Shown here: positions 4,338-27,460 of the stretch, piece by piece | Numbering within the stretch: position 1 is the first letter of the stretch | Layout of the letters: each line of letters starts with the position of its first letter | Assembly (NCBI RefSeq): GCF_004376175.1 | Contig: NZ_SNUY01000001.1 | Location: 32,373 to 64,372, forward strand | From: Halalkalibacterium halodurans | GTDB taxonomy: Bacteria; Bacillota; Bacilli; Bacillales; Bacillaceae_D | Length of the DNA: 32,000 bases | Direction of reading: 5' to 3' | Program-made: the position numbers and the translations under genes | Notes under the pieces: model-generated | What the model saw: only the letters and a program-made list of their open reading frames with translations | What the model was told of the DNA's origin: nothing | Database searches by the model: none

Positions 4338-4841
4338 TTAAACTTCAACAGCAACAGCAGGCTCCTCTTCATGAAGCTTAAATTGCTCATGGAGCATTTC
4401 AACCGCCAACACCATTAACTCCTCATCAATAACAGCAGACACTTTTATTTCCGATGTACTTACCATTTTGATCGCGATGTCATTGGCTGCAAGAATTTCG
4501 AACATTTTTGCTGCTACTCCTGGATTGGATACCATCCCAGAGCCGACAATTGACACCTTTGCCAACTCTTCTTCATAATCGATGCCTTGAAACGACAGTT
4601 CCCCTTTTAATTCTTCTAGGCGAGCGAGTGTTTCTTTTAATGAGCTTTGCGTAATCGAGAAGGAAATCGCCATTCCTGAATCTGTTTGATTTTGGATAAT
4701 GATATCTACATTAATCCCCGCAGCCGACAAATGGGCGAATAGGGTCGGGAGTGTGTGGATTTCATTTGGTAACCCGTGCACCGTTACTTTTGTCACATCA
4801 TTTTCAAAGGCAATGCCGCGTACTAGTAAATTTTGTTCCAT
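4338..4841 (-). CDS. lysC: Nested in-frame aspartokinase II beta subunit, from an internal start at Met246
   Basis: The in-frame ATG at 4839-4841 is codon 246 and is preceded by GAGGAGGAAGG 5 nt upstream (minus strand ...GAGGAGGAAGGAACAATGGAACAAAAT). B. subtilis lysC is known to yield alpha and beta subunits from overlapping in-phase frames. Confidence 0.6.
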   Translation of the reverse strand: MEQNLLVRGIAFENDVTKVTVHGLPNEIHTLPTLFAHLSAAGINVDIIIQNQTDSGMAISFSITQSSLKETLARLEELKGELSFQGIDYEEELAKVSIVGSGMVSNPGVAAKMFEILAANDIAIKMVSTSEIKVSAVIDEELMVLAVEMLHEQFKLHEEEPAVAVEV

Positions 4842-5576
4842 TGTTCCTTCCTCCTCTATCATTGTTCCTGGCTCATCTACCATGCTCGAGGCGACAAGTA
4901 ACGGAATCTCATAATTTTTTGCAAATTCAACCGCTCGTGGATGAAGGACACTTGCCCCTAGGTTCGCCATTTCAAGCATCTCATCATATGAAATCGTTTG
5001 AAGCTTGCGCGCTTGTTTCACGACCCGAGGGTCTGTTGTAAATACACCTGTCACATCTGTATAAATTTCGCATCGTTCGGCCTTGAGAGCTGCGGCAATC
5101 GCGACTGCCGACGTATCTGATCCGCCTCTGCCGAGGGTCATGATCTCTCCTTGTTGATCGATTCCTTGAAAACCTGCGACGATCACAACGTGGCCTTTAT
5201 CTAGTAATTCATCCATCCGCGCTCTCTCCACTTCCAAAATCCGAGCGTTCCCATGGTGTGATTCTGTGATCATCCCAGCTTGCCAGCCCGTAAGCGATGT
5301 CGCTTCCTGTCCCCGTTTATGTAGGGCCATCGCCAAAAGCGCAATCGTCACTTGCTCTCCTGTTGCTAGGAGCATATCCATTTCACGCTTTCGCGGTTCG
5401 TCGGTAATTTCGCTCGCTAATCCAACTAACTCATCTGTCGTCTTTCCCATTGCTGATACGACAACAACGACTTTCTTTCCTGAAGCAGCCGTTGCGATGA
5501 TCCGGTTCGCTACATGTTCAATTCGTTGAACGGAGCCAACAGACGTGCCTCCATACTTCTGTACAATGATTGACAT
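4338..5576 (-). CDS. lysC: Aspartokinase II, alpha subunit reading frame
   Basis: MSIIVQKYGGTSVGS... is the amino-acid kinase N-terminus, and ACT-type domains follow at the C-terminus. The ATG is at 5574-5576. The 50 aa upstream extension in the ORF track runs through the riboswitch leader and is rejected. Confidence 0.95.
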   Translation of the reverse strand: MSIIVQKYGGTSVGSVQRIEHVANRIIATAASGKKVVVVVSAMGKTTDELVGLASEITDEPRKREMDMLLATGEQVTIALLAMALHKRGQEATSLTGWQAGMITESHHGNARILEVERARMDELLDKGHVVIVAGFQGIDQQGEIMTLGRGGSDTSAVAIAAALKAERCEIYTDVTGVFTTDPRVVKQARKLQTISYDEMLEMANLGASVLHPRAVEFAKNYEIPLLVASSMVDEPGTMIEEEGTMEQNLLVRGIAFENDVTKVTVHGLPNEIHTLPTLFAHLSAAGINVDIIIQNQTDSGMAISFSITQSSLKETLARLEELKGELSFQGIDYEEELAKVSIVGSGMVSNPGVAAKMFEILAANDIAIKMVSTSEIKVSAVIDEELMVLAVEMLHEQFKLHEEEPAVAVEV

Positions 5577-5599
5577 AGGTTTCCCCTTTCTGTTCTTCG

Positions 5600-5895
5600 C
5601 TTGGAAATCGCGCATAAAGAAAACAAAAACGCAACAGCAGGAAAACTCCTCACCATTGCGTACTGTACACGAAAATAAAAACGTGCGCACATTCCCGTAG
5701 CTACGTGAGATAGTCCTCCACAGCACTAGTTGGGGCTAGTGTTGTGACAGCCCTATGCTTATTCAACATAGGTCCAGCGCAAATGGGAATGAGACCCGAT
5801 CTGCACTTCGGCGAATCCCCCTTTCCAACAGTCGTCAACGATTCTCATTTCTCTCAAACTGTGTACTCTTGGTTTTCGCTCCTCTACCATCACTT
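5600..5895 (-). ncRNA. Lysine riboswitch (L box) leader of lysC
   Basis: The minus strand reads GGTAGAGGAGCGAAAACCAAGAGTA...GAAAGGGGGATTCGCCGAAGTG...GCGCTGGACC...TTGAATAAGCATAGGGCTGTCACA...GTGGAGGACTATCTCAC. All the conserved L-box blocks are present, collinear with the B. subtilis lysC leader. A U-rich tract (GCGTTTTTGTTTTC) lies before the RBS. Confidence 0.9.
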
Positions 5896-21050: not shown

Positions 21051-21318
21051 TTTTTTCGTCTCCTGTTAATCTCTGCTGTTCTAAATAACGAATGTACTCT
21101 TCCAATTTTTTTAAATCATCCATCACATTTACGGCCGTTAATACGGCTAGTCTCGTTGTATCTAAGTACGGATTAACCTTCCGTAGTTCACGCATTTTTG
21201 CATCAATTTCAGCGGCCACTTCTTTCATGTATTCGGGACTATCATAGCCAGCAACCGTATACTGCTGTCCATAAATCGAGACGGTGGTACGCTGCTTTTC
21301 TCTTTGTCTCTCTTTCAC
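21043..21318 (-). CDS. zapA: Cell division protein ZapA
   Basis: 91 aa; ...VSIYGQQYTVAGYDSPEYMKEVAAEIDAKMRELRK... is a typical ZapA. The start is GTG with GGAGG 7 nt upstream. Confidence 0.9.
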   Translation of the reverse strand: MKERQREKQRTTVSIYGQQYTVAGYDSPEYMKEVAAEIDAKMRELRKVNPYLDTTRLAVLTAVNVMDDLKKLEEYIRYLEQQRLTGDEKNA

Positions 21319-21367
21319 CGAAAAGCCTCCTATTCGTCAAATCACACTATCAATAAATCTACATTCT

Positions 21368-21376
21368 ATCATAACA
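21368..21376 (-). promoter_or_regulatory. Extended -10 promoter candidate for zapA (TGtTATGAT)
   Basis: The minus strand reads CGTGTTATGATAGAATG, about 45 nt upstream of the zapA start. Confidence 0.4.
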
Positions 21377-21470
21377 CGAAGCGCTATGGATGAAAACAGA
21401 CATTGTAAAAAGGTGACAAATTCCTTAGAACTTTGTCGCTTCAAGCTTCTTGCCCCCTTTTTTTTGCGAT

Positions 21471-21498
21471 TTGACATTTTTTGATAATGTTATAGAAT
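21471..21498 (+). promoter_or_regulatory. Strong orphan sigmaA promoter: TTGACA, 16 nt spacer, TAGAAT
   Basis: TTGACA is at 21471-21476 and TAGAAT at 21493-21498 on the plus strand, divergent from zapA. No ORF of 60 aa or more and no RBS-supported short ORF follows it. Confidence 0.55.
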
Positions 21499-21831
21499 GG
21501 ATGGGCCCTTCGTCATGAATCGTAGCACCCTTCCCTTAGGTTTTATATCGGCACGTTTAAAGGATTTTTTGGTAGCAAGTCATTATAAAAGCAAAGTTTT
21601 TTGTCAAATGTTGGCGTAGCATAGCAAAATTGAAAGGATCATAGCGAAATACTTATCAACATATAGATACGGTCAAAATCCACATTGGCTTCGTGTATGG
21701 TCCACCTTTTCGTTCACACAATTCCCTAATGATTTGTCCAATACTTTTCTTGATCTTACCATGAAGCGAGGATTTTTTTACCATGCTAAAAGCTTTCTGG
21801 AGCCCCTGGTAGCCAGACCTTTCAAAACCAA

Positions 21832-21878
21832 CAAAAACAGGCTAAGCGACTCTTAACTTTCGCTTAGCCCTTTTCTTA
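21832..21878. terminator. Bidirectional terminator, downstream of the LysE-family gene and closing the orphan plus-strand transcript
   Basis: GGCTAAGCG (21840-21848) pairs with CGCTTAGCC (21861-21869). It is flanked by CAAAAACA on the left and CTTTTCTT on the right. Confidence 0.7.
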
Positions 21879-22517
21879 GCCACTGCTCATGAGTTGGAAT
21901 ATAACTGTCACTGCTTGGAAAGCAAAGCTGATCCCAAATCCGATTAGGACTAGGCCCGCCCCAATCGAAAGCCATTTGATAAATTTCTGATTCAAAAATT
22001 TCCGTCCGAAATGGACAGATGTGGCAACCGTTAAATCCCACAACGCGATTCCAATAAAAATAAAACTACTATAAAGCAATGCGTAACTTGAATGTACATT
22101 CGTTAAAGTGGTGGTTAAAACCGAACCATAAATTCCAACCCAGAAAACTATATTTAATGGATTAGAAATAGCAATTAAAAATCCAGATAAGAAACAACGC
22201 CACTTGCTTACTGATTGGATTCCGTCTGAAATGATGACATTTTTAAATGCATCTCTAATACTTTCATAGCCTAGATAGCTTAAAATAGCGAATCCAAAAA
22301 CCCATAAGATAAATTGAGCTAATGGAGCCGTAAGAAAGCTTGAGATTCCTATATAAATTAGGATCATTAAAACAACGTCGGCCGACATTCCACCGAGTCC
22401 TACCGCCCAGGAATGCCAGAACCCACTTTTGATTCCCCTTTTGATCATTTCAACATTAATTGGCCCAACGGGTATAGAAAGAGCTAGGCCTAATACAATA
22501 TAGCTTAGTAGATTCAT
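21876..22517 (-). CDS. LysE/RhtB-family amino-acid efflux protein
   Basis: 213 aa with about 6 TM segments. The N-terminus (LGLALSIPVGPINVEMIKRG) is typical of the LysE translocator family. Its ATG overlaps the upstream stop as ATGA. Confidence 0.8.
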   Translation of the reverse strand: MNLLSYIVLGLALSIPVGPINVEMIKRGIKSGFWHSWAVGLGGMSADVVLMILIYIGISSFLTAPLAQFILWVFGFAILSYLGYESIRDAFKNVIISDGIQSVSKWRCFLSGFLIAISNPLNIVFWVGIYGSVLTTTLTNVHSSYALLYSSFIFIGIALWDLTVATSVHFGRKFLNQKFIKWLSIGAGLVLIGFGISFAFQAVTVIFQLMSSG

Positions 22518-23278
22518 TGATTATTTTTTCTCCCTGTTATTGGACATCTCATTACACTTTCCTCATTTGTTTCAGGTAACACATATTGTTTCCACTCTCT
22601 GCTATCAGGGTCGCCGTAATCTCCGATATCGGGATGACTAGCAATCTTATCATACTTTTTTAATCTCTCGCGAATTACTTCTCTTACTTTTCTACCCTTT
22701 GCTGTATCTCCTGTTATATCATCTAAAGTACCCCTGGGTTGCATCGTTATTTCTAACCCATAAGGTGTATAACGACTTTTTCGATCATTATAGAAAGGTT
22801 CACGACAAACTAAAAAAATGGGTTCGCCTGCAAAACAAAACTCCCATTTAGGATCGTTTGGATCGTTTGGTATATCTGGAGGCCAGACACTTGGATCATT
22901 GACATTTAAAAAATTGATTACATTCCAGAACTGTTTTTTATAGTCTTCTGAAACTCCACCTTCTATGGGTTTGAAAAATAATACAAGTGTTGTACGTTTT
23001 CCAATAGATCTATAACTTTTTATATATTCATAAACCGCATTTTTTACCCTATGTAACTCTTTTTCATCATAAGCTGACTCTGCAAAAATATAACGTATAA
23101 GTCCATTTTTTTCCGCTTCAACAGCAAAATAACACGGATATGGCTCAGTTACATCTAGCAAAGAACGTCTAAAATCATAATATGTTCTTACCATCCATTC
23201 TTCTAATTCCCCATTCCCAATACAGTCAGCCAATTTTTCTTGATCTAACAAACAGCCAACTTTCAACAAAACAATCAA
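22514..23278 (-). CDS. YqcI/YcgG-family protein (PF08892-like)
   Basis: About 251-254 aa. The PYPCYFAVEA motif and the C-terminal FLVCREPFYNDRKSRYTPYGLEITMQPRG block resemble B. subtilis YqcI/YcgG as recalled. The track start is TTG at 23278, directly abutting AGGAG. The TTG at 23269 has better spacing. Confidence 0.7.
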   Translation of the reverse strand: MIVLLKVGCLLDQEKLADCIGNGELEEWMVRTYYDFRRSLLDVTEPYPCYFAVEAEKNGLIRYIFAESAYDEKELHRVKNAVYEYIKSYRSIGKRTTLVLFFKPIEGGVSEDYKKQFWNVINFLNVNDPSVWPPDIPNDPNDPKWEFCFAGEPIFLVCREPFYNDRKSRYTPYGLEITMQPRGTLDDITGDTAKGRKVREVIRERLKKYDKIASHPDIGDYGDPDSREWKQYVLPETNEESVMRCPITGRKNNQ

Positions 23279-23313
23279 CTCCTATATATGATTAATATTG
23301 TTAATTAATCCAT

Positions 23314-23342
23314 ATTATATCTTTAATTTAAATTTTATTCAA
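23314..23342 (-). promoter_or_regulatory. sigmaA promoter of the YqcI-LysE cassette: TTGAAT, 17 nt spacer, TATAAT
   Basis: On the minus strand the -35 is at 23337-23342 and the -10 at 23314-23319, with an exact 17 nt spacer. It lies about 40 nt upstream of the ORF start. Confidence 0.6.
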
Positions 23343-23561
23343 TATCATAATTCATAATCATTTATAATTATTAATCAAAGTAAGAGGATCTAATATTTAG
23401 ATCTGTTCACAGCATCAAGGGAGAGGGTGTGCAATTTGAAGGTTGCTGTATAAAACAATTGCTGACTTGATATTATTAGGTTTCTCTTTTTTATTACTAA
23501 ATTATACCATATATCAAAGGACTAACACGATTTTGTCTCATCATTTAGTATCCATTCTTTC

Positions 23562-23590
23562 AAAAAAAGCCAGCCTGCAATGAGGCTGAC
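23562..23590 (-). terminator. Intrinsic terminator of pheST
   Basis: The minus strand reads GTCAGCCTCATTGCAGGCTGGC followed by TTTTTTTG, 14 nt after the pheT stop. Confidence 0.8.
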
Positions 23591-23603
23591 TCCTTCTCAA
23601 TGA

Positions 23604-26030
23604 TTATCCACGTAAAACAGCTCCAGTTGATGCTTCGAGCTCTTTTAAAATTTGCTCGTGAACCGCTGTGACCTCTTCATCCGTTAATGTGCGCTCCGGA
23701 TCAAAGTAGGTGAGAGAGAAGGCAATGGATTTCTTCCCAACTTCCATATGCTCTCCTTCATAAAGATCAAACAGATAAACATGTTTTAGCCATTCGCCGC
23801 CGTTCGCCTCAATCACTTGCTGCAATTGGGCCGCTGTTACGTTCTCATCAACGACAAGGGCGATATCACGCGAGATCGCTGGGAAGCGAGGAAGTGGTTC
23901 ATAGGCGACCTCAGTCCCTTCCTCTGCCAACAGGGATTCTACATCTAATTGGAACACGTACGTTTCTTTTAAGTCTAACTCGCTTTGTCGCTCAGGATGA
24001 ATCTGACCGGCAAAACCAACGGCTCTACCATTTACTTTTACGTTTGCCGTTCGCCCTGGATGCATCCCTGGCTGCTCCCCACGTTCAAACGTCACCTTTT
24101 CTGATAAGCCTAACTCTGCGAACATTCCTTCAAGAATGCCTTTTACGACAAAGAAGTCGACGGCTTTTTTCTCTCCTTGCCATAAATGCTCCGTCCAAAG
24201 CCCAGTCAATGCACCTGCAAGCATTTCTCGTTCCTCTGGCTGTTTTGTTAACGTTTCTTCCTTGCTTAAAAACACAGATCCGAGCTCGTAAATAAACAAC
24301 GCTTCTTGCTTTCGGTTCAAGTTGTATTGCACCACATCAAGCAAATGTGGCACTAAGCTCGTTCGCATGGTGCTTCGCTCTTCACTCATCGGCATGGCTA
24401 CACGAATCGGTAAGTAATCTTCATTTTCCCCTTGAAGTCCCTTTGCCTTTTCTTCACTCGTTAATGAATACGTCATCACTTCAAATAAGCCTGCCCCTTC
24501 TAAATACCGGCGAATTTTTCGACGCTTCTGTTGATAGTCCGTTAAACCACCACGAGTTGTTCCTCCTACCGGGAACGTTGTCGGGATGTTGTCATAGCCA
24601 TATAAACGGGCCACTTCCTCAAATAAATCTTCCTCGATTCGAATATCGCCTCGTCTCGACGGGGCTGTTACTTCGAACGTATCGTTTTCAACCGTATAAG
24701 CAAAACCGAGTCTGTCAAAAATCGCTGCCACTTCATCGTGAGAAAGTTCCATACCAAGACGTTGATTCATGTGGGGAAGATTCAAAGAAACGACTGGTTC
24801 TTCAATCGCAAGCTCGCCAGCTTCGACGACACCACCAACAACGGTGCCTCCAGCTACTTCCGCGATGAGTGTGGCCGCTCTTGCCGCTGCTTCCCTCACC
24901 CGTTTCGGATCAACCCCCTTTTCAAACCGTGAGCTTGAATCACTCCGTAGTCCCAGATCCCGAGAGGCTTTCCGCACCGTAGCCGGATCAAAATAAGCCG
25001 CTTCAAGGAGTACCGTTGTAGTATCTTCCTGCACCTCAGATGTAGCTCCCCCCATGACACCAGCAATGGCCACAGGATCACGTCCATTTGTAATGAGCAG
25101 GTGGTCTGCTTGTAACGTCCGTTCTATATCATCTAGAGTAACCATTTTCTCTCCTTCTTTTGCAAGGCGAGTGACCACTTTGTTTGATCCTAAGCGATCG
25201 TAGTCAAACGCATGAAGCGGCTGACCGTATTCAAGGAGAACATAGTTTGTTACATCGACGACGTTGCTAATCGGACGAATGCCAGCAGCAATGAGACGAT
25301 TTTGCAGCCATAATGGCGATGGTCCGACTTTCACATTTTTAATAATCGTTGCCCCATAATATGGATTCTTCTCAATGTCGTCAATTTCAACCGATACATA
25401 ATCGCTTGCTTGACCATCAGTTCCACTACTTTCGGCAGTTGGCCAATGAACCTCTTTGTCAAAAAGCGCCGCCACTTCATAGGCCACTCCGTACATGTTT
25501 AAACAGTCGGAACGATTCGGCGTCAAGTCCAACTCAAGTACTTGGTCATAGCGATTGAGAGCTTCCAAAGCGTCGCTCCCGATTTCAACGTCGTCTGAAA
25601 AAACATAGATCCCGTCAGCGAATTCTTTTTGCACAAATTTATTTTCTACGCCAAGCTCCTGCAATGAACAAATCATCCCTTGGGATAGCTCACCGCGAAG
25701 CTTTGCTTTTTTAATTTTAAAATTACCCGGGAGAACAGCTCCAACCTTGGCGACAGCCACCTTTTGACCCGCTGCGACGTTTGGCGCACCGCACACAATT
25801 TGTACAGGCTCTTCTTCCCCAATCTCTACTTGACATAGGTTCAATTTATCTGCATTTGGGTGCTGGCGACATTCAAGGACATGGCCGACGACCACCCCTG
25901 TTGCTCCTTGATTTAAGTCATGAATGATGTCAACCTCAATCCCCCCGCGCGTCAGCTTTTCCGCTACTTCCTCTGCGGAAATACCGTCAAGATCGACGTA
26001 TTGCTTTAACCATTGATAGGATACTAACAT
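23604..26030 (-). CDS. pheT: Phenylalanine--tRNA ligase beta subunit
   Basis: 808 aa. MLVSYQWLKQYVDL is the canonical PheT N-terminus. It follows pheS directly. Confidence 0.97.
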   Translation of the reverse strand: MLVSYQWLKQYVDLDGISAEEVAEKLTRGGIEVDIIHDLNQGATGVVVGHVLECRQHPNADKLNLCQVEIGEEEPVQIVCGAPNVAAGQKVAVAKVGAVLPGNFKIKKAKLRGELSQGMICSLQELGVENKFVQKEFADGIYVFSDDVEIGSDALEALNRYDQVLELDLTPNRSDCLNMYGVAYEVAALFDKEVHWPTAESSGTDGQASDYVSVEIDDIEKNPYYGATIIKNVKVGPSPLWLQNRLIAAGIRPISNVVDVTNYVLLEYGQPLHAFDYDRLGSNKVVTRLAKEGEKMVTLDDIERTLQADHLLITNGRDPVAIAGVMGGATSEVQEDTTTVLLEAAYFDPATVRKASRDLGLRSDSSSRFEKGVDPKRVREAAARAATLIAEVAGGTVVGGVVEAGELAIEEPVVSLNLPHMNQRLGMELSHDEVAAIFDRLGFAYTVENDTFEVTAPSRRGDIRIEEDLFEEVARLYGYDNIPTTFPVGGTTRGGLTDYQQKRRKIRRYLEGAGLFEVMTYSLTSEEKAKGLQGENEDYLPIRVAMPMSEERSTMRTSLVPHLLDVVQYNLNRKQEALFIYELGSVFLSKEETLTKQPEEREMLAGALTGLWTEHLWQGEKKAVDFFVVKGILEGMFAELGLSEKVTFERGEQPGMHPGRTANVKVNGRAVGFAGQIHPERQSELDLKETYVFQLDVESLLAEEGTEVAYEPLPRFPAISRDIALVVDENVTAAQLQQVIEANGGEWLKHVYLFDLYEGEHMEVGKKSIAFSLTYFDPERTLTDEEVTAVHEQILKELEASTGAVLRG

Positions 26031-27189: not shown

Positions 27190-27460
27190 AAGTGCAAAAA
27201 AACCTTCGTTCCCAAACAAGGGACGAAGGTTTCGCGGTACCACCCTAATTGATGCACAAACTGAGTGCATCCTCTTCATTTCCATAACGGCTGTTGCCGG
27301 GATCACCTTAACAAGCTATTGCGCTTGTGTTCCAGTGCCTGCTCCAGAGCGAATTCAGCTGTCCTTTCCATCGAGGTGCTTTCAGTCGCTGGCATCTCGT
27401 CCCTGGTTGGTAGGGTTCAGCTTACTACTCTCTTTCCACGCATTTTCATACTATTTGGAT
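27190..27460 (-). ncRNA. T-box riboswitch leader, Phe (UUC) specifier, controlling pheST
   Basis: On the minus strand, the stem I base AGAG...CTCT encloses AGTA and the AGCTG/CAGCT helix. The specifier loop reads GAA-TTC-G, with the codon at 27351-27353. The T-box motif AATTAGGGTGGTACCGCG is at 27233-27250. The terminator AACCTTCGTCCC..GGGAACGAAGGTT plus T7 is at 27194-27232. Confidence 0.92.

Follow-up and report, generated by a model that had tools for sequence, protein, structure and literature searches.

A mobile hydroxylase-exporter gene pair in Halalkalibacterium halodurans with a predicted role in arginine N-hydroxylation

A two-gene cassette between pheT and zapA

We analyzed a stretch of 32,000 nucleotides (nt) of Halalkalibacterium halodurans (NCBI RefSeq assembly GCF_004376175.1, contig NZ_SNUY01000001.1, positions 32,373 to 64,372 of the forward strand), hereafter called the window, in which two genes of the minus strand lie between the core genes pheT and zapA. 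The first encodes a YqcI/YcgG-family protein (yqcI, 22514-23278) and the second a LysE-superfamily efflux permease of 213 amino acids (aa) (lysE, 21876-22517), and the two genes overlap, the stop codon of yqcI and the start codon of lysE sharing the ATGA at 22514-22517. We propose that this cassette could serve to N-hydroxylate arginine, or a near analog, and to export the product.

The longest open reading frame (ORF) of yqcI encodes 254 aa, and the residue numbers used here refer to it. The start codon is probably the TTG at 23269, giving a product of 251 aa, because a Shine-Dalgarno sequence, AGGAG (23283-23279), stands 9 nt before it, homologues begin with M-I/L-K, and the protein as called in another strain has 251 aa. 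The window protein is 100% identical to a H. halodurans database entry.

The pheST operon ends in its own terminator (23562-23592, minus strand; -20.9 kcal/mol, z -4.0), which forms the left boundary of the cassette and thus makes the latter a separate transcription unit. A candidate sigma-70-like promoter, TTGAAT-17 nt-TATAAT (23314-23342, minus strand), matches the consensus at 10 of 12 positions, and its location 5' of yqcI and 3' of the pheT terminator fits such a unit. At the other end lies an intrinsic terminator (21831-21869, minus strand) with a stem of 9-11 bp followed by a T-run, whose hairpin, GGCTAAGCG/CGCTTAGCC at 21869-21840, folds at -19.2 kcal/mol (z -3.8), a value reached by 0 of 200 shuffled sequences; a simple terminator scan missed it because the loop exceeds the 8-nt limit of the scan. 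The neighbors identified by Pfam are pheS-pheT on one side and zapA, CvpA-family/yshB, polX and mutS2 on the other. A first-pass annotation, made from the letters and their ORFs, had already described the ATGA overlap, the terminator (as 21840-21869) and the core-gene context, and all three were confirmed.

The spacer upstream of yqcI is AT-rich, as had been noticed, with 27.7% G+C. When the window was scanned, no Rfam model reached its gathering threshold in this spacer, and a search of 21300-23650 at E<=1 yielded nothing but a chance match (E 0.79) to a mammalian long non-coding RNA model; a riboswitch or leader in this spacer was rejected for lack of Rfam support. In an alignment of seven upstream regions of the cassette, made in search of a conserved operator or motif, AT-richness was the only common feature. 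An imperfect inverted repeat of 21 nt (76% complementary; 23289-23309 and 23357-23377) brackets the candidate promoter, and it may be an operator or a chance product of AT-rich DNA.

A YqcI/YcgG-family enzyme with a predicted arginine site

Both proteins were assigned to the expected Pfam families with strong scores. The yqcI product matches PF08892 (YqcI_YcgG) with 231.6 bits (cut-off 27; E 1.2e-68) over profile positions 4-210 of 211. Proteins of this family act as heme-thiolate guanidine N-hydroxylases (PMC12866846; bioRxiv 10.1101/2024.01.24.577118), so that the heme-dependent guanidino chemistry given in the first-pass annotation was right. In a sequence comparison with the PDB, the only significant relative was AglA of the argolaphos pathway of Streptomyces monomycini (PDB 9ub3, 9ub5, 9uba, 9ubb, 9ubs), whose chains aligned over the full length (E 4e-40). 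The AlphaFold2 model of the window enzyme (predicted local distance difference test score 86.4, predicted template modeling score 0.87) was compared with known structures by Foldseek, and AglA entries alone were significant (template modeling scores 0.79-0.88, E ~1e-19), a likeness that concerns a predicted fold and not a solved structure.

In AglA, Cys44 is the heme ligand, while Arg166, Lys196 and Arg200 bind the heme propionates. The arginine moiety is positioned by Phe152, Gln177, Arg179, Phe182 and Gln228, with Phe182 packing against the arginine side chain, and the substrate phosphonate is bound by Lys196, Lys225, Ser221 and Thr222 (PMC12866846). The ligand of the related enzyme ChmN is Cys47. 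Cys49 of the window enzyme, within a PYPCYF motif, aligns with Cys44 of AglA and is invariant in 18 of 18 aligned homologues, and Arg169, Arg199 and Arg203 occupy the propionate positions Arg166, Lys196 and Arg200. Phe155, Gln180, Arg182 and Gln231 correspond to the arginine-positioning residues Phe152, Gln177, Arg179 and Gln228. The two enzymes differ at Leu185 (Phe182 in AglA), Arg199 (Lys196), Glu228 (Lys225) and Pro224/Asp225 (Ser221/Thr222).

Two of these differences bear on the substrate. The AglA variants K196R and K225E, and above all the double mutant, acquire the ability to hydroxylate free L-arginine on N-delta, the new Glu holding the alpha-amino group and the Arg reaching the carboxylate (PMC12866846). 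The same combination, Arg at 199 and Glu at 228, was found in 88 of the 101 homologues retrieved with the window protein, and Glu228 in 97 of them. A search seeded with AglA returned actinobacterial homologues, and the equivalent positions 196 and 225 were both Lys in 47 out of 48; the comparison is one between two retrieved sets at the level of clades. Because Arg199 and Glu228 are the very residues engineered into AglA and occur clade-wide, we infer that the native substrate is a free alpha-amino acid, most likely L-arginine. This sharpens the suggestion of the first-pass annotation that the pair makes and exports a modified basic amino acid. ChmN converts free arginine to N-delta-hydroxy- and dihydroxy-arginine with ferredoxin, ferredoxin reductase and NADPH (bioRxiv 10.1101/2024.01.24.577118).

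A variant architecture of the family was seen in a protein of 357 aa from a public sequencing-run assembly (P0092), which carries cupin/AraC-binding domains (PF07883, PF02311) fused to the N-terminal side of its YqcI/YcgG domain.

The exporter

The lysE product matches PF01810 with 123.3 bits (cut-off 25.6; E 1.1e-35) over profile positions 2-191 of 193, thus spanning the whole protein, and its size is typical of the LysE/ArgO/RhtB exporters (~210 aa). Unlike the named exporters, it lies far under every curated cut-off, and no NCBIfam equivalog reached its threshold: LysE (TIGR00948) scored 31 bits against 213.65, the RhtB subfamily (TIGR00949) 43.9 against 183.95 and LeuE (NF008201) 39.1 against 165. 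Its closest relatives are LysE proteins of Bacillaceae with 72-76% identity, and it is 46% identical to the LysE encoded beside a YcgG homologue in B. subtilis.

Recurrence and mobility of the pair

The recurrence of the pair was surveyed by scanning one genome per species and by looking up individual homologues. The gene order of the window (yqcI followed by lysE on the same strand) recurs at unrelated sites in one haloarchaeon and in no fewer than 12 lineages of Bacillota, with spacings from an 8-nt overlap to a 3-nt gap, and the stop/start coupling was kept in 13 copies. The pair lies between a DUF2711 gene and a glyoxalase gene in B. subtilis strains, and it is also present in Rummeliibacillus pycnus, two Melghirimyces species, B. 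paranthracis and B. wiedmannii. In Geobacillus thermodenitrificans it stands beside toxin-antitoxin and phage-lysin genes, and on an element common to several Bacillaceae beside integrase and Tn3-family transposase genes. Plasmid-borne copies adjoin the insertion sequence (IS) IS6 in Priestia megaterium and lie between IS6 and an integrase gene in B. pseudomycoides; a B. cereus plasmid and a conjugative plasmid of B. toyonensis carry the pair as well. The archaeal copy, with a 4-nt overlap, belongs to Natrinema gari (locus L022, 5974-7397).

The G+C content of the pair is lower than that of its flanks in N. gari (41.3% vs 58%), B. subtilis (35.5% vs 45.1%), Geobacillus (34.6% vs 39.4%) and Melghirimyces (41.6% vs 46.2%), whereas no such difference from the surroundings is seen in the B. 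cereus group, Rummeliibacillus and Priestia. The unit thus seems to have its home in low-G+C Bacillaceae and to have spread outward from them, and the N. gari copy looks like a recent transfer of the whole unit from a bacterium to an archaeon. A TrmB/MarR-like regulator gene and a TauE exporter gene lie upstream of the N. gari pair. Across 15 pairs, the identity matrices of the YqcI and LysE proteins are correlated (Pearson r 0.84, Mantel p ~2e-4), as would be expected if both genes were inherited together.

The reverse order, LysE before YcgG, was found in B. subtilis, Virgibacillus and a Clostridia genome, so that the association with LysE holds for either gene order and for enzymes with as little as 36-38% identity. 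The layout in B. subtilis is MarR, LysE and YcgG, then a convergent amino-acid permease, DUF1989 and NAD synthase, with ldh-lctP upstream; we take this region to be ycgE-ycgF-ycgG-ycgH-ycgI-nadE. UniRef names that LysE subfamily "Amino acid efflux protein YcgF". Around pairs of the ycgF-ycgG type (L082 6802-9131; L112 5326-6279; L091 5463-7529), an ADI/DDAH-superfamily enzyme and an amino-acid permease flank the Virgibacillus pair, an ADI/DDAH-superfamily enzyme likewise flanks the pair of the Clostridia genome, and in B. subtilis the neighbors are an amino-acid permease and a DUF1989 protein. Enzymes of this superfamily modify guanidino groups, and we counted these neighbors as a contextual link to arginine. 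DUF1989 itself is associated with guanidine and urea carboxylase pathways.

In B. wiedmannii, B. toyonensis and B. pseudomycoides, all of the B. cereus group, the pair is preceded at a distance of 24-33 nt by a gene for a YbaK/EbsC-type aminoacyl-tRNA deacylase (158 aa, PF04073) (L086-L090 4501-4977; L100 5495-5971; L101 4495-4968), which makes a three-gene unit in three genomic contexts, one chromosome and two plasmids. The protein scores far below the cut-off for a Cys-tRNAPro deacylase. This neighbor points to an amino acid with which tRNA can be mischarged as the small molecule concerned.

The pairing is real, widespread and annotated in databases. The view of the first-pass annotation that it is not a described system stands insofar as our literature search found no functional description of a YqcI/YcgG-LysE pairing, but the association is the same as that of ycgF-ycgG in B. 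subtilis, and on plasmids of Bacillus and Priestia the two genes are annotated as neighbors. A search for B. subtilis ycgF and ycgG found only unrelated E. coli genes of the same names, and one for hydroxyarginine found no paper linking it to a LysE exporter.

Haloarchaea also hold related enzymes in other settings. The haloarchaeal homologues nearest to the window enzyme (L009-L020; 52-58% identity), from Haladaptatus, Natrialba, Halegenticoccus, Natrinema zhouii and others, several of them on plasmids, have no LysE neighbor; immediately upstream, and on the same strand, are genes for a sulfotransferase-like protein (407 aa; PF13469, PF00685) and a fused adenosine 5'-phosphosulfate kinase/cytidylyltransferase-like protein (300 aa), which hints at O-sulfation of an N-hydroxy product. 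In a second haloarchaeal group (L029-L080, at least about 20 loci, 40-47% identity), a conserved isochorismatase-family cysteine hydrolase is encoded directly downstream of YqcI (e.g., L075 2182-2766). The best NCBIfam match of this hydrolase, a weak one, is to biuret amidohydrolase, and it may act on a hydroxy-guanidino or ureido product.

Foreign composition and loss among strains

Compared with the 23 other genes of the window (mean G+C at third codon positions, GC3, 42.2%; standard deviation 4.0), yqcI is a clear compositional outlier, with 34.9% G+C (z -3.1) and a GC3 of 22.7% (z -4.9), and lysE only a marginal one (38.0%, z -2.0; GC3 35.0%, z -1.8). Both genes are thus poorer in G+C than pheT (47.3%), as the first-pass annotation had proposed, but its hand counts had placed the two in reversed order; the average of the whole window is 43.6%. 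The Karlin B codon-bias index was uninformative at such gene lengths (z 0.9-1.6). The three computational checks suggested with the first-pass annotation, on the Pfam families, on conservation of the pair in other genomes and on composition, all came out in its favor, the last only marginally for lysE. By its composition and the links of the pair to mobile elements, the cassette is a horizontally acquired island, one copy of a mobile module circulating among Bacillota. Around the cassette we found no convincing transposon ends, target-site duplications or flanking repeats. A tblastn search against 50,697 phage records gave no match, and neither protein was matched in PADLOC as a component of anti-phage defense.

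Between the cassette terminator and zapA, a three-frame reading recovered a probable IS200/IS605-type tnpA remnant, decayed, with frameshifts and stop codons (minus strand, approximately 21440-21790). Its translation, stitched across the frameshifts, scored 22.6 bits with Pfam Y1_Tnp (PF01797; cut-off 23; E 1e-4), and tblastn against annotated IS200/IS605 tnpA genes on plasmids gave 50-55% identity over ~45 aa (E 3e-5), scores that fit a decayed fragment. The best promoter-like match of the region (TTGACA-16 nt-TAGAAT, 11/12, 21471-21498, plus strand) lies inside this remnant and points antisense towards the 3' end of lysE.

An exact-sequence look-up of the window YqcI protein found no record. 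Strain contexts were retrieved through the ZapA protein of the window, which gave 23 H. halodurans contigs. The cassette is present in three (L104, L105 and one place like L104) with 99.9% identity to the window. In the remaining 20 (L102, L103, L106 and the places they stand for), the pheT-zapA spacer measures only 862 bp, and a segment of 1426 bp (22129-23554) that holds the candidate promoter and yqcI, together with the initial 389 nt of lysE, is missing. These contigs match the window up to 23555 and then from 22128, with a 3-nt filler (ACC) at the junction, which is identical in all three loci read (L102, L103, L106), and they keep the final 253 nt of lysE together with its terminator and what lies downstream. 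An insertion polymorphism with empty sites was rejected because the short spacers retain the 3' end of lysE; the retained stub identifies the polymorphism as a deletion, and the cassette as ancestral in this lineage and lost by one 1426-bp event. The module is therefore dispensable and is being lost in H. halodurans.

Elsewhere in the window, a lysine riboswitch (111 bits; 5703-5894, minus strand) lies upstream of an ORF of 462 aa (4338-5726), and a T-box leader (110 bits; 27216-27447, minus strand) upstream of pheS.

Comparison with known systems

AglA and the window enzyme share the Pfam family, the predicted fold and the Cys ligand of the PYPCYF motif. AglA, however, uses Lys196 and Lys225 to hold the phosphonate of AMPn-Arg and has essentially no activity on free arginine, while the window enzyme carries Arg and Glu at these positions, and AglA lies in a phosphonate gene cluster with a native PDR/VanB reductase partner, whereas the only partner of the window gene is an exporter. 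Of the two marks by which orthology to AglA was judged, the Lys196/Lys225 pair and a location in a phosphonate cluster, the window enzyme has neither, its flanks being pheT on one side and the probable IS remnant and zapA on the other.

ChmN (chalkophomycin/graminine) and DcsA (D-cycloserine) belong to the same family, are both associated with free L-arginine and probably share the substrate class with the window enzyme. They are, however, embedded in multi-enzyme natural-product clusters, while the window cassette contains no downstream tailoring enzyme: ChmN acts alongside a SznF-like enzyme, and in the D-cycloserine pathway the arginase-like DcsB acts after DcsA. The ycgE-ycgF-ycgG locus of B. 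subtilis brings together the same two families (LysE 46% and YcgG 37-38% identical to the window proteins), but in reversed order, with a gap of 69 nt instead of an overlap, with a MarR regulator, and in a chromosomal setting that is not cassette-like. Besides, B. subtilis YcgG has Ser at position 199 and Phe at 185, where the window enzyme has Arg and Leu.

Predicted function and alternative explanations

Based on the active-site residues, the fold model and the genomic distribution, we propose that the cassette is a mobile operon of two genes: its predicted heme-thiolate enzyme would N-hydroxylate free arginine or a near analog, and its coupled LysE pump would export the product. To this reading we assign a probability of roughly one half. 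In this scheme, Cys49 would ligate the heme iron and Arg169, Arg199 and Arg203 would hold the heme propionates. Oxygen, and electrons supplied by a ferredoxin or flavodoxin of the host, would drive the enzyme, which would N-hydroxylate a free alpha-amino acid, most probably L-arginine, on its guanidino group, with Glu228 anchoring the alpha-amino group and Arg199 the carboxylate, as in AglA K196R/K225E. The translationally coupled LysE-type permease would then remove hydroxy-arginine, or the corresponding arginine analog, from the cytoplasm.

More tentatively, the YcgG-type clade as a whole (~100 close relatives seen, in Bacillota and haloarchaea) might consist of natural free-L-arginine N-hydroxylases. 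Together with its dedicated LysE pump, such an enzyme could represent the smallest known "biosynthetic gene cluster", a mobile one whose secreted hydroxyarginine could act as antimetabolite, arginase inhibitor or NO/HNO donor, and the orphan exporters and the YbaK deacylase of the B. cereus group might then be immunity functions. This extension is possible, but we hold it to be less probable than the scheme above.

Several findings weigh against the proposed make-and-export function. The cassette encodes no redox partner, and Leu185 takes the place of AglA Phe182, a residue that AglA needs for activity. The cassette is missing by deletion from about 20 of the 23 H. halodurans contigs. The promoter that the first-pass annotation assigned to the pair does exist as a sequence match, but such matches are no commoner in the region than in shuffled sequence (10 found vs 8.8 expected), which leaves the candidate plausible by position only. 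Besides, the hydroxylase gene has been repeatedly and independently inactivated or lost in several lineages in which lysE is intact. In L092, a TGA (4381-4383) stands at the codon of the heme-binding Cys; in L093-L096 (4411-5004) the enzyme is truncated at residue 61 and Tn3-family transposon genes adjoin; Kroppenstedtia (L107-L109, 3305-3498) retains only a C-terminal stub of residues 189-253; and in Heyndrickxia (L012 and L013) the match ends at residue 197, with lysE 3.9 kb away. Close LysE relatives (57-75% identity) also stand alone in B. methanolicus and Planococcus, and in Geobacillus thermocatenulatus both genes are pseudogenes. The loss of the enzyme with retention of lysE indicates that the exporter has a value without the enzyme, which a strict make-and-export function does not predict; it would suit a part in immunity or resistance towards an external compound, or else a broader efflux role.

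Such resistance is the likeliest of the alternatives, and we regard it as unlikely. The enzyme would modify an exogenous toxic arginine analog, such as canavanine or the guanidino antimetabolite of a competitor, LysE would expel it, and the YbaK protein of the B. cereus group would clear mischarged tRNA. The sporadic and often plasmid- or transposon-linked distribution of the pair is typical of resistance traits, the exporters that outlive their enzymes fit a partial resistance by efflux alone, and residues that bind a free amino acid would suit an arginine analog as well as arginine. ArgO of E. coli, a member of the LysE family, confers canavanine resistance, which we also counted in favor of this explanation, together with the YbaK/EbsC genes upstream of the pair in three species. 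To our knowledge, on the other hand, N-hydroxylation is not a known detoxification route for arginine analogs. The window cassette includes no sensing regulator, and a YbaK gene accompanies the pair only within the B. cereus group. Besides, all characterized members of the YqcI/YcgG family are biosynthetic (PMC12866846).

It is rather improbable that the two genes merely travel together, LysE being a general overflow valve for basic or neutral amino acids and the hydroxylase having an unrelated intracellular role. The solitary LysE relatives, the absence of an NCBIfam equivalog that would define the substrate of the exporter, and the haloarchaeal homologues of the enzyme, most of which have other partners than LysE, agree with such a loose association. 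It is, however, difficult to reconcile with the stop/start coupling in 13 copies, with a pairing that is kept in two gene orders down to 36-38% enzyme identity, with the correlated divergence of both proteins, and with the entry of the pair into an archaeon as a unit.

We consider it similarly improbable, and slightly more so, that the cassette is here a decaying, unexpressed relic that contributes nothing. One deletion has removed it from most conspecific contigs, a probable IS remnant adjoins it, its promoter is only a candidate, and the Geobacillus thermocatenulatus copies are dead. Both ORFs are nevertheless intact in the window, L104 and L105, the catalytic residues are all conserved, and neither the ribosome-binding site nor the gene overlap nor the terminator is damaged.

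Finally, we consider it very unlikely that the enzyme works on some guanidino or amino compound besides arginine (for instance homoarginine, an enduracididine-like amino acid or lysine) and that the exporter carries the resulting product: GntA of the same family hydroxylates a cyclic arginine derivative (NCBIfam description; PMC12866846), and Leu185 replaces the Phe that packs on the arginine side chain in AglA, but the window enzyme is not a GntA (NCBIfam NF041366, 37.6 bits vs a cut-off of 145), the arginine-positioning residues Gln180, Arg182, Phe155 and Gln231 are all conserved, and the ADI/DDAH-type neighbors point to arginine-type guanidines.

Implications

Both protein families and the chemistry of the enzyme were known. 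New are the conserved mobile hydroxylase-exporter unit outside natural-product clusters, its apparent equivalence to ycgF-ycgG of B. subtilis, and the prediction, at the level of individual residues, of a free-arginine substrate. The YqcI/YcgG family has more than 4,000 members, of which six have been characterized, all six inside large antibiotic gene clusters. Our analysis adds a large Bacillus and haloarchaeal clade, including ycgF-ycgG of B. subtilis, in which an amino-acid exporter is the only constant partner of the enzyme, and it predicts that the Arg199/Glu228 pair marks a native activity on free arginine.

If the proposed function is wrong, the cassette is another accessory gene pair that H. 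halodurans is losing. If it is right, conserved genes of a model organism would gain a function, the secretion of hydroxyarginine would be a widespread and horizontally traded trait, and the clade would provide natural catalysts for a reaction that now needs an engineered AglA.

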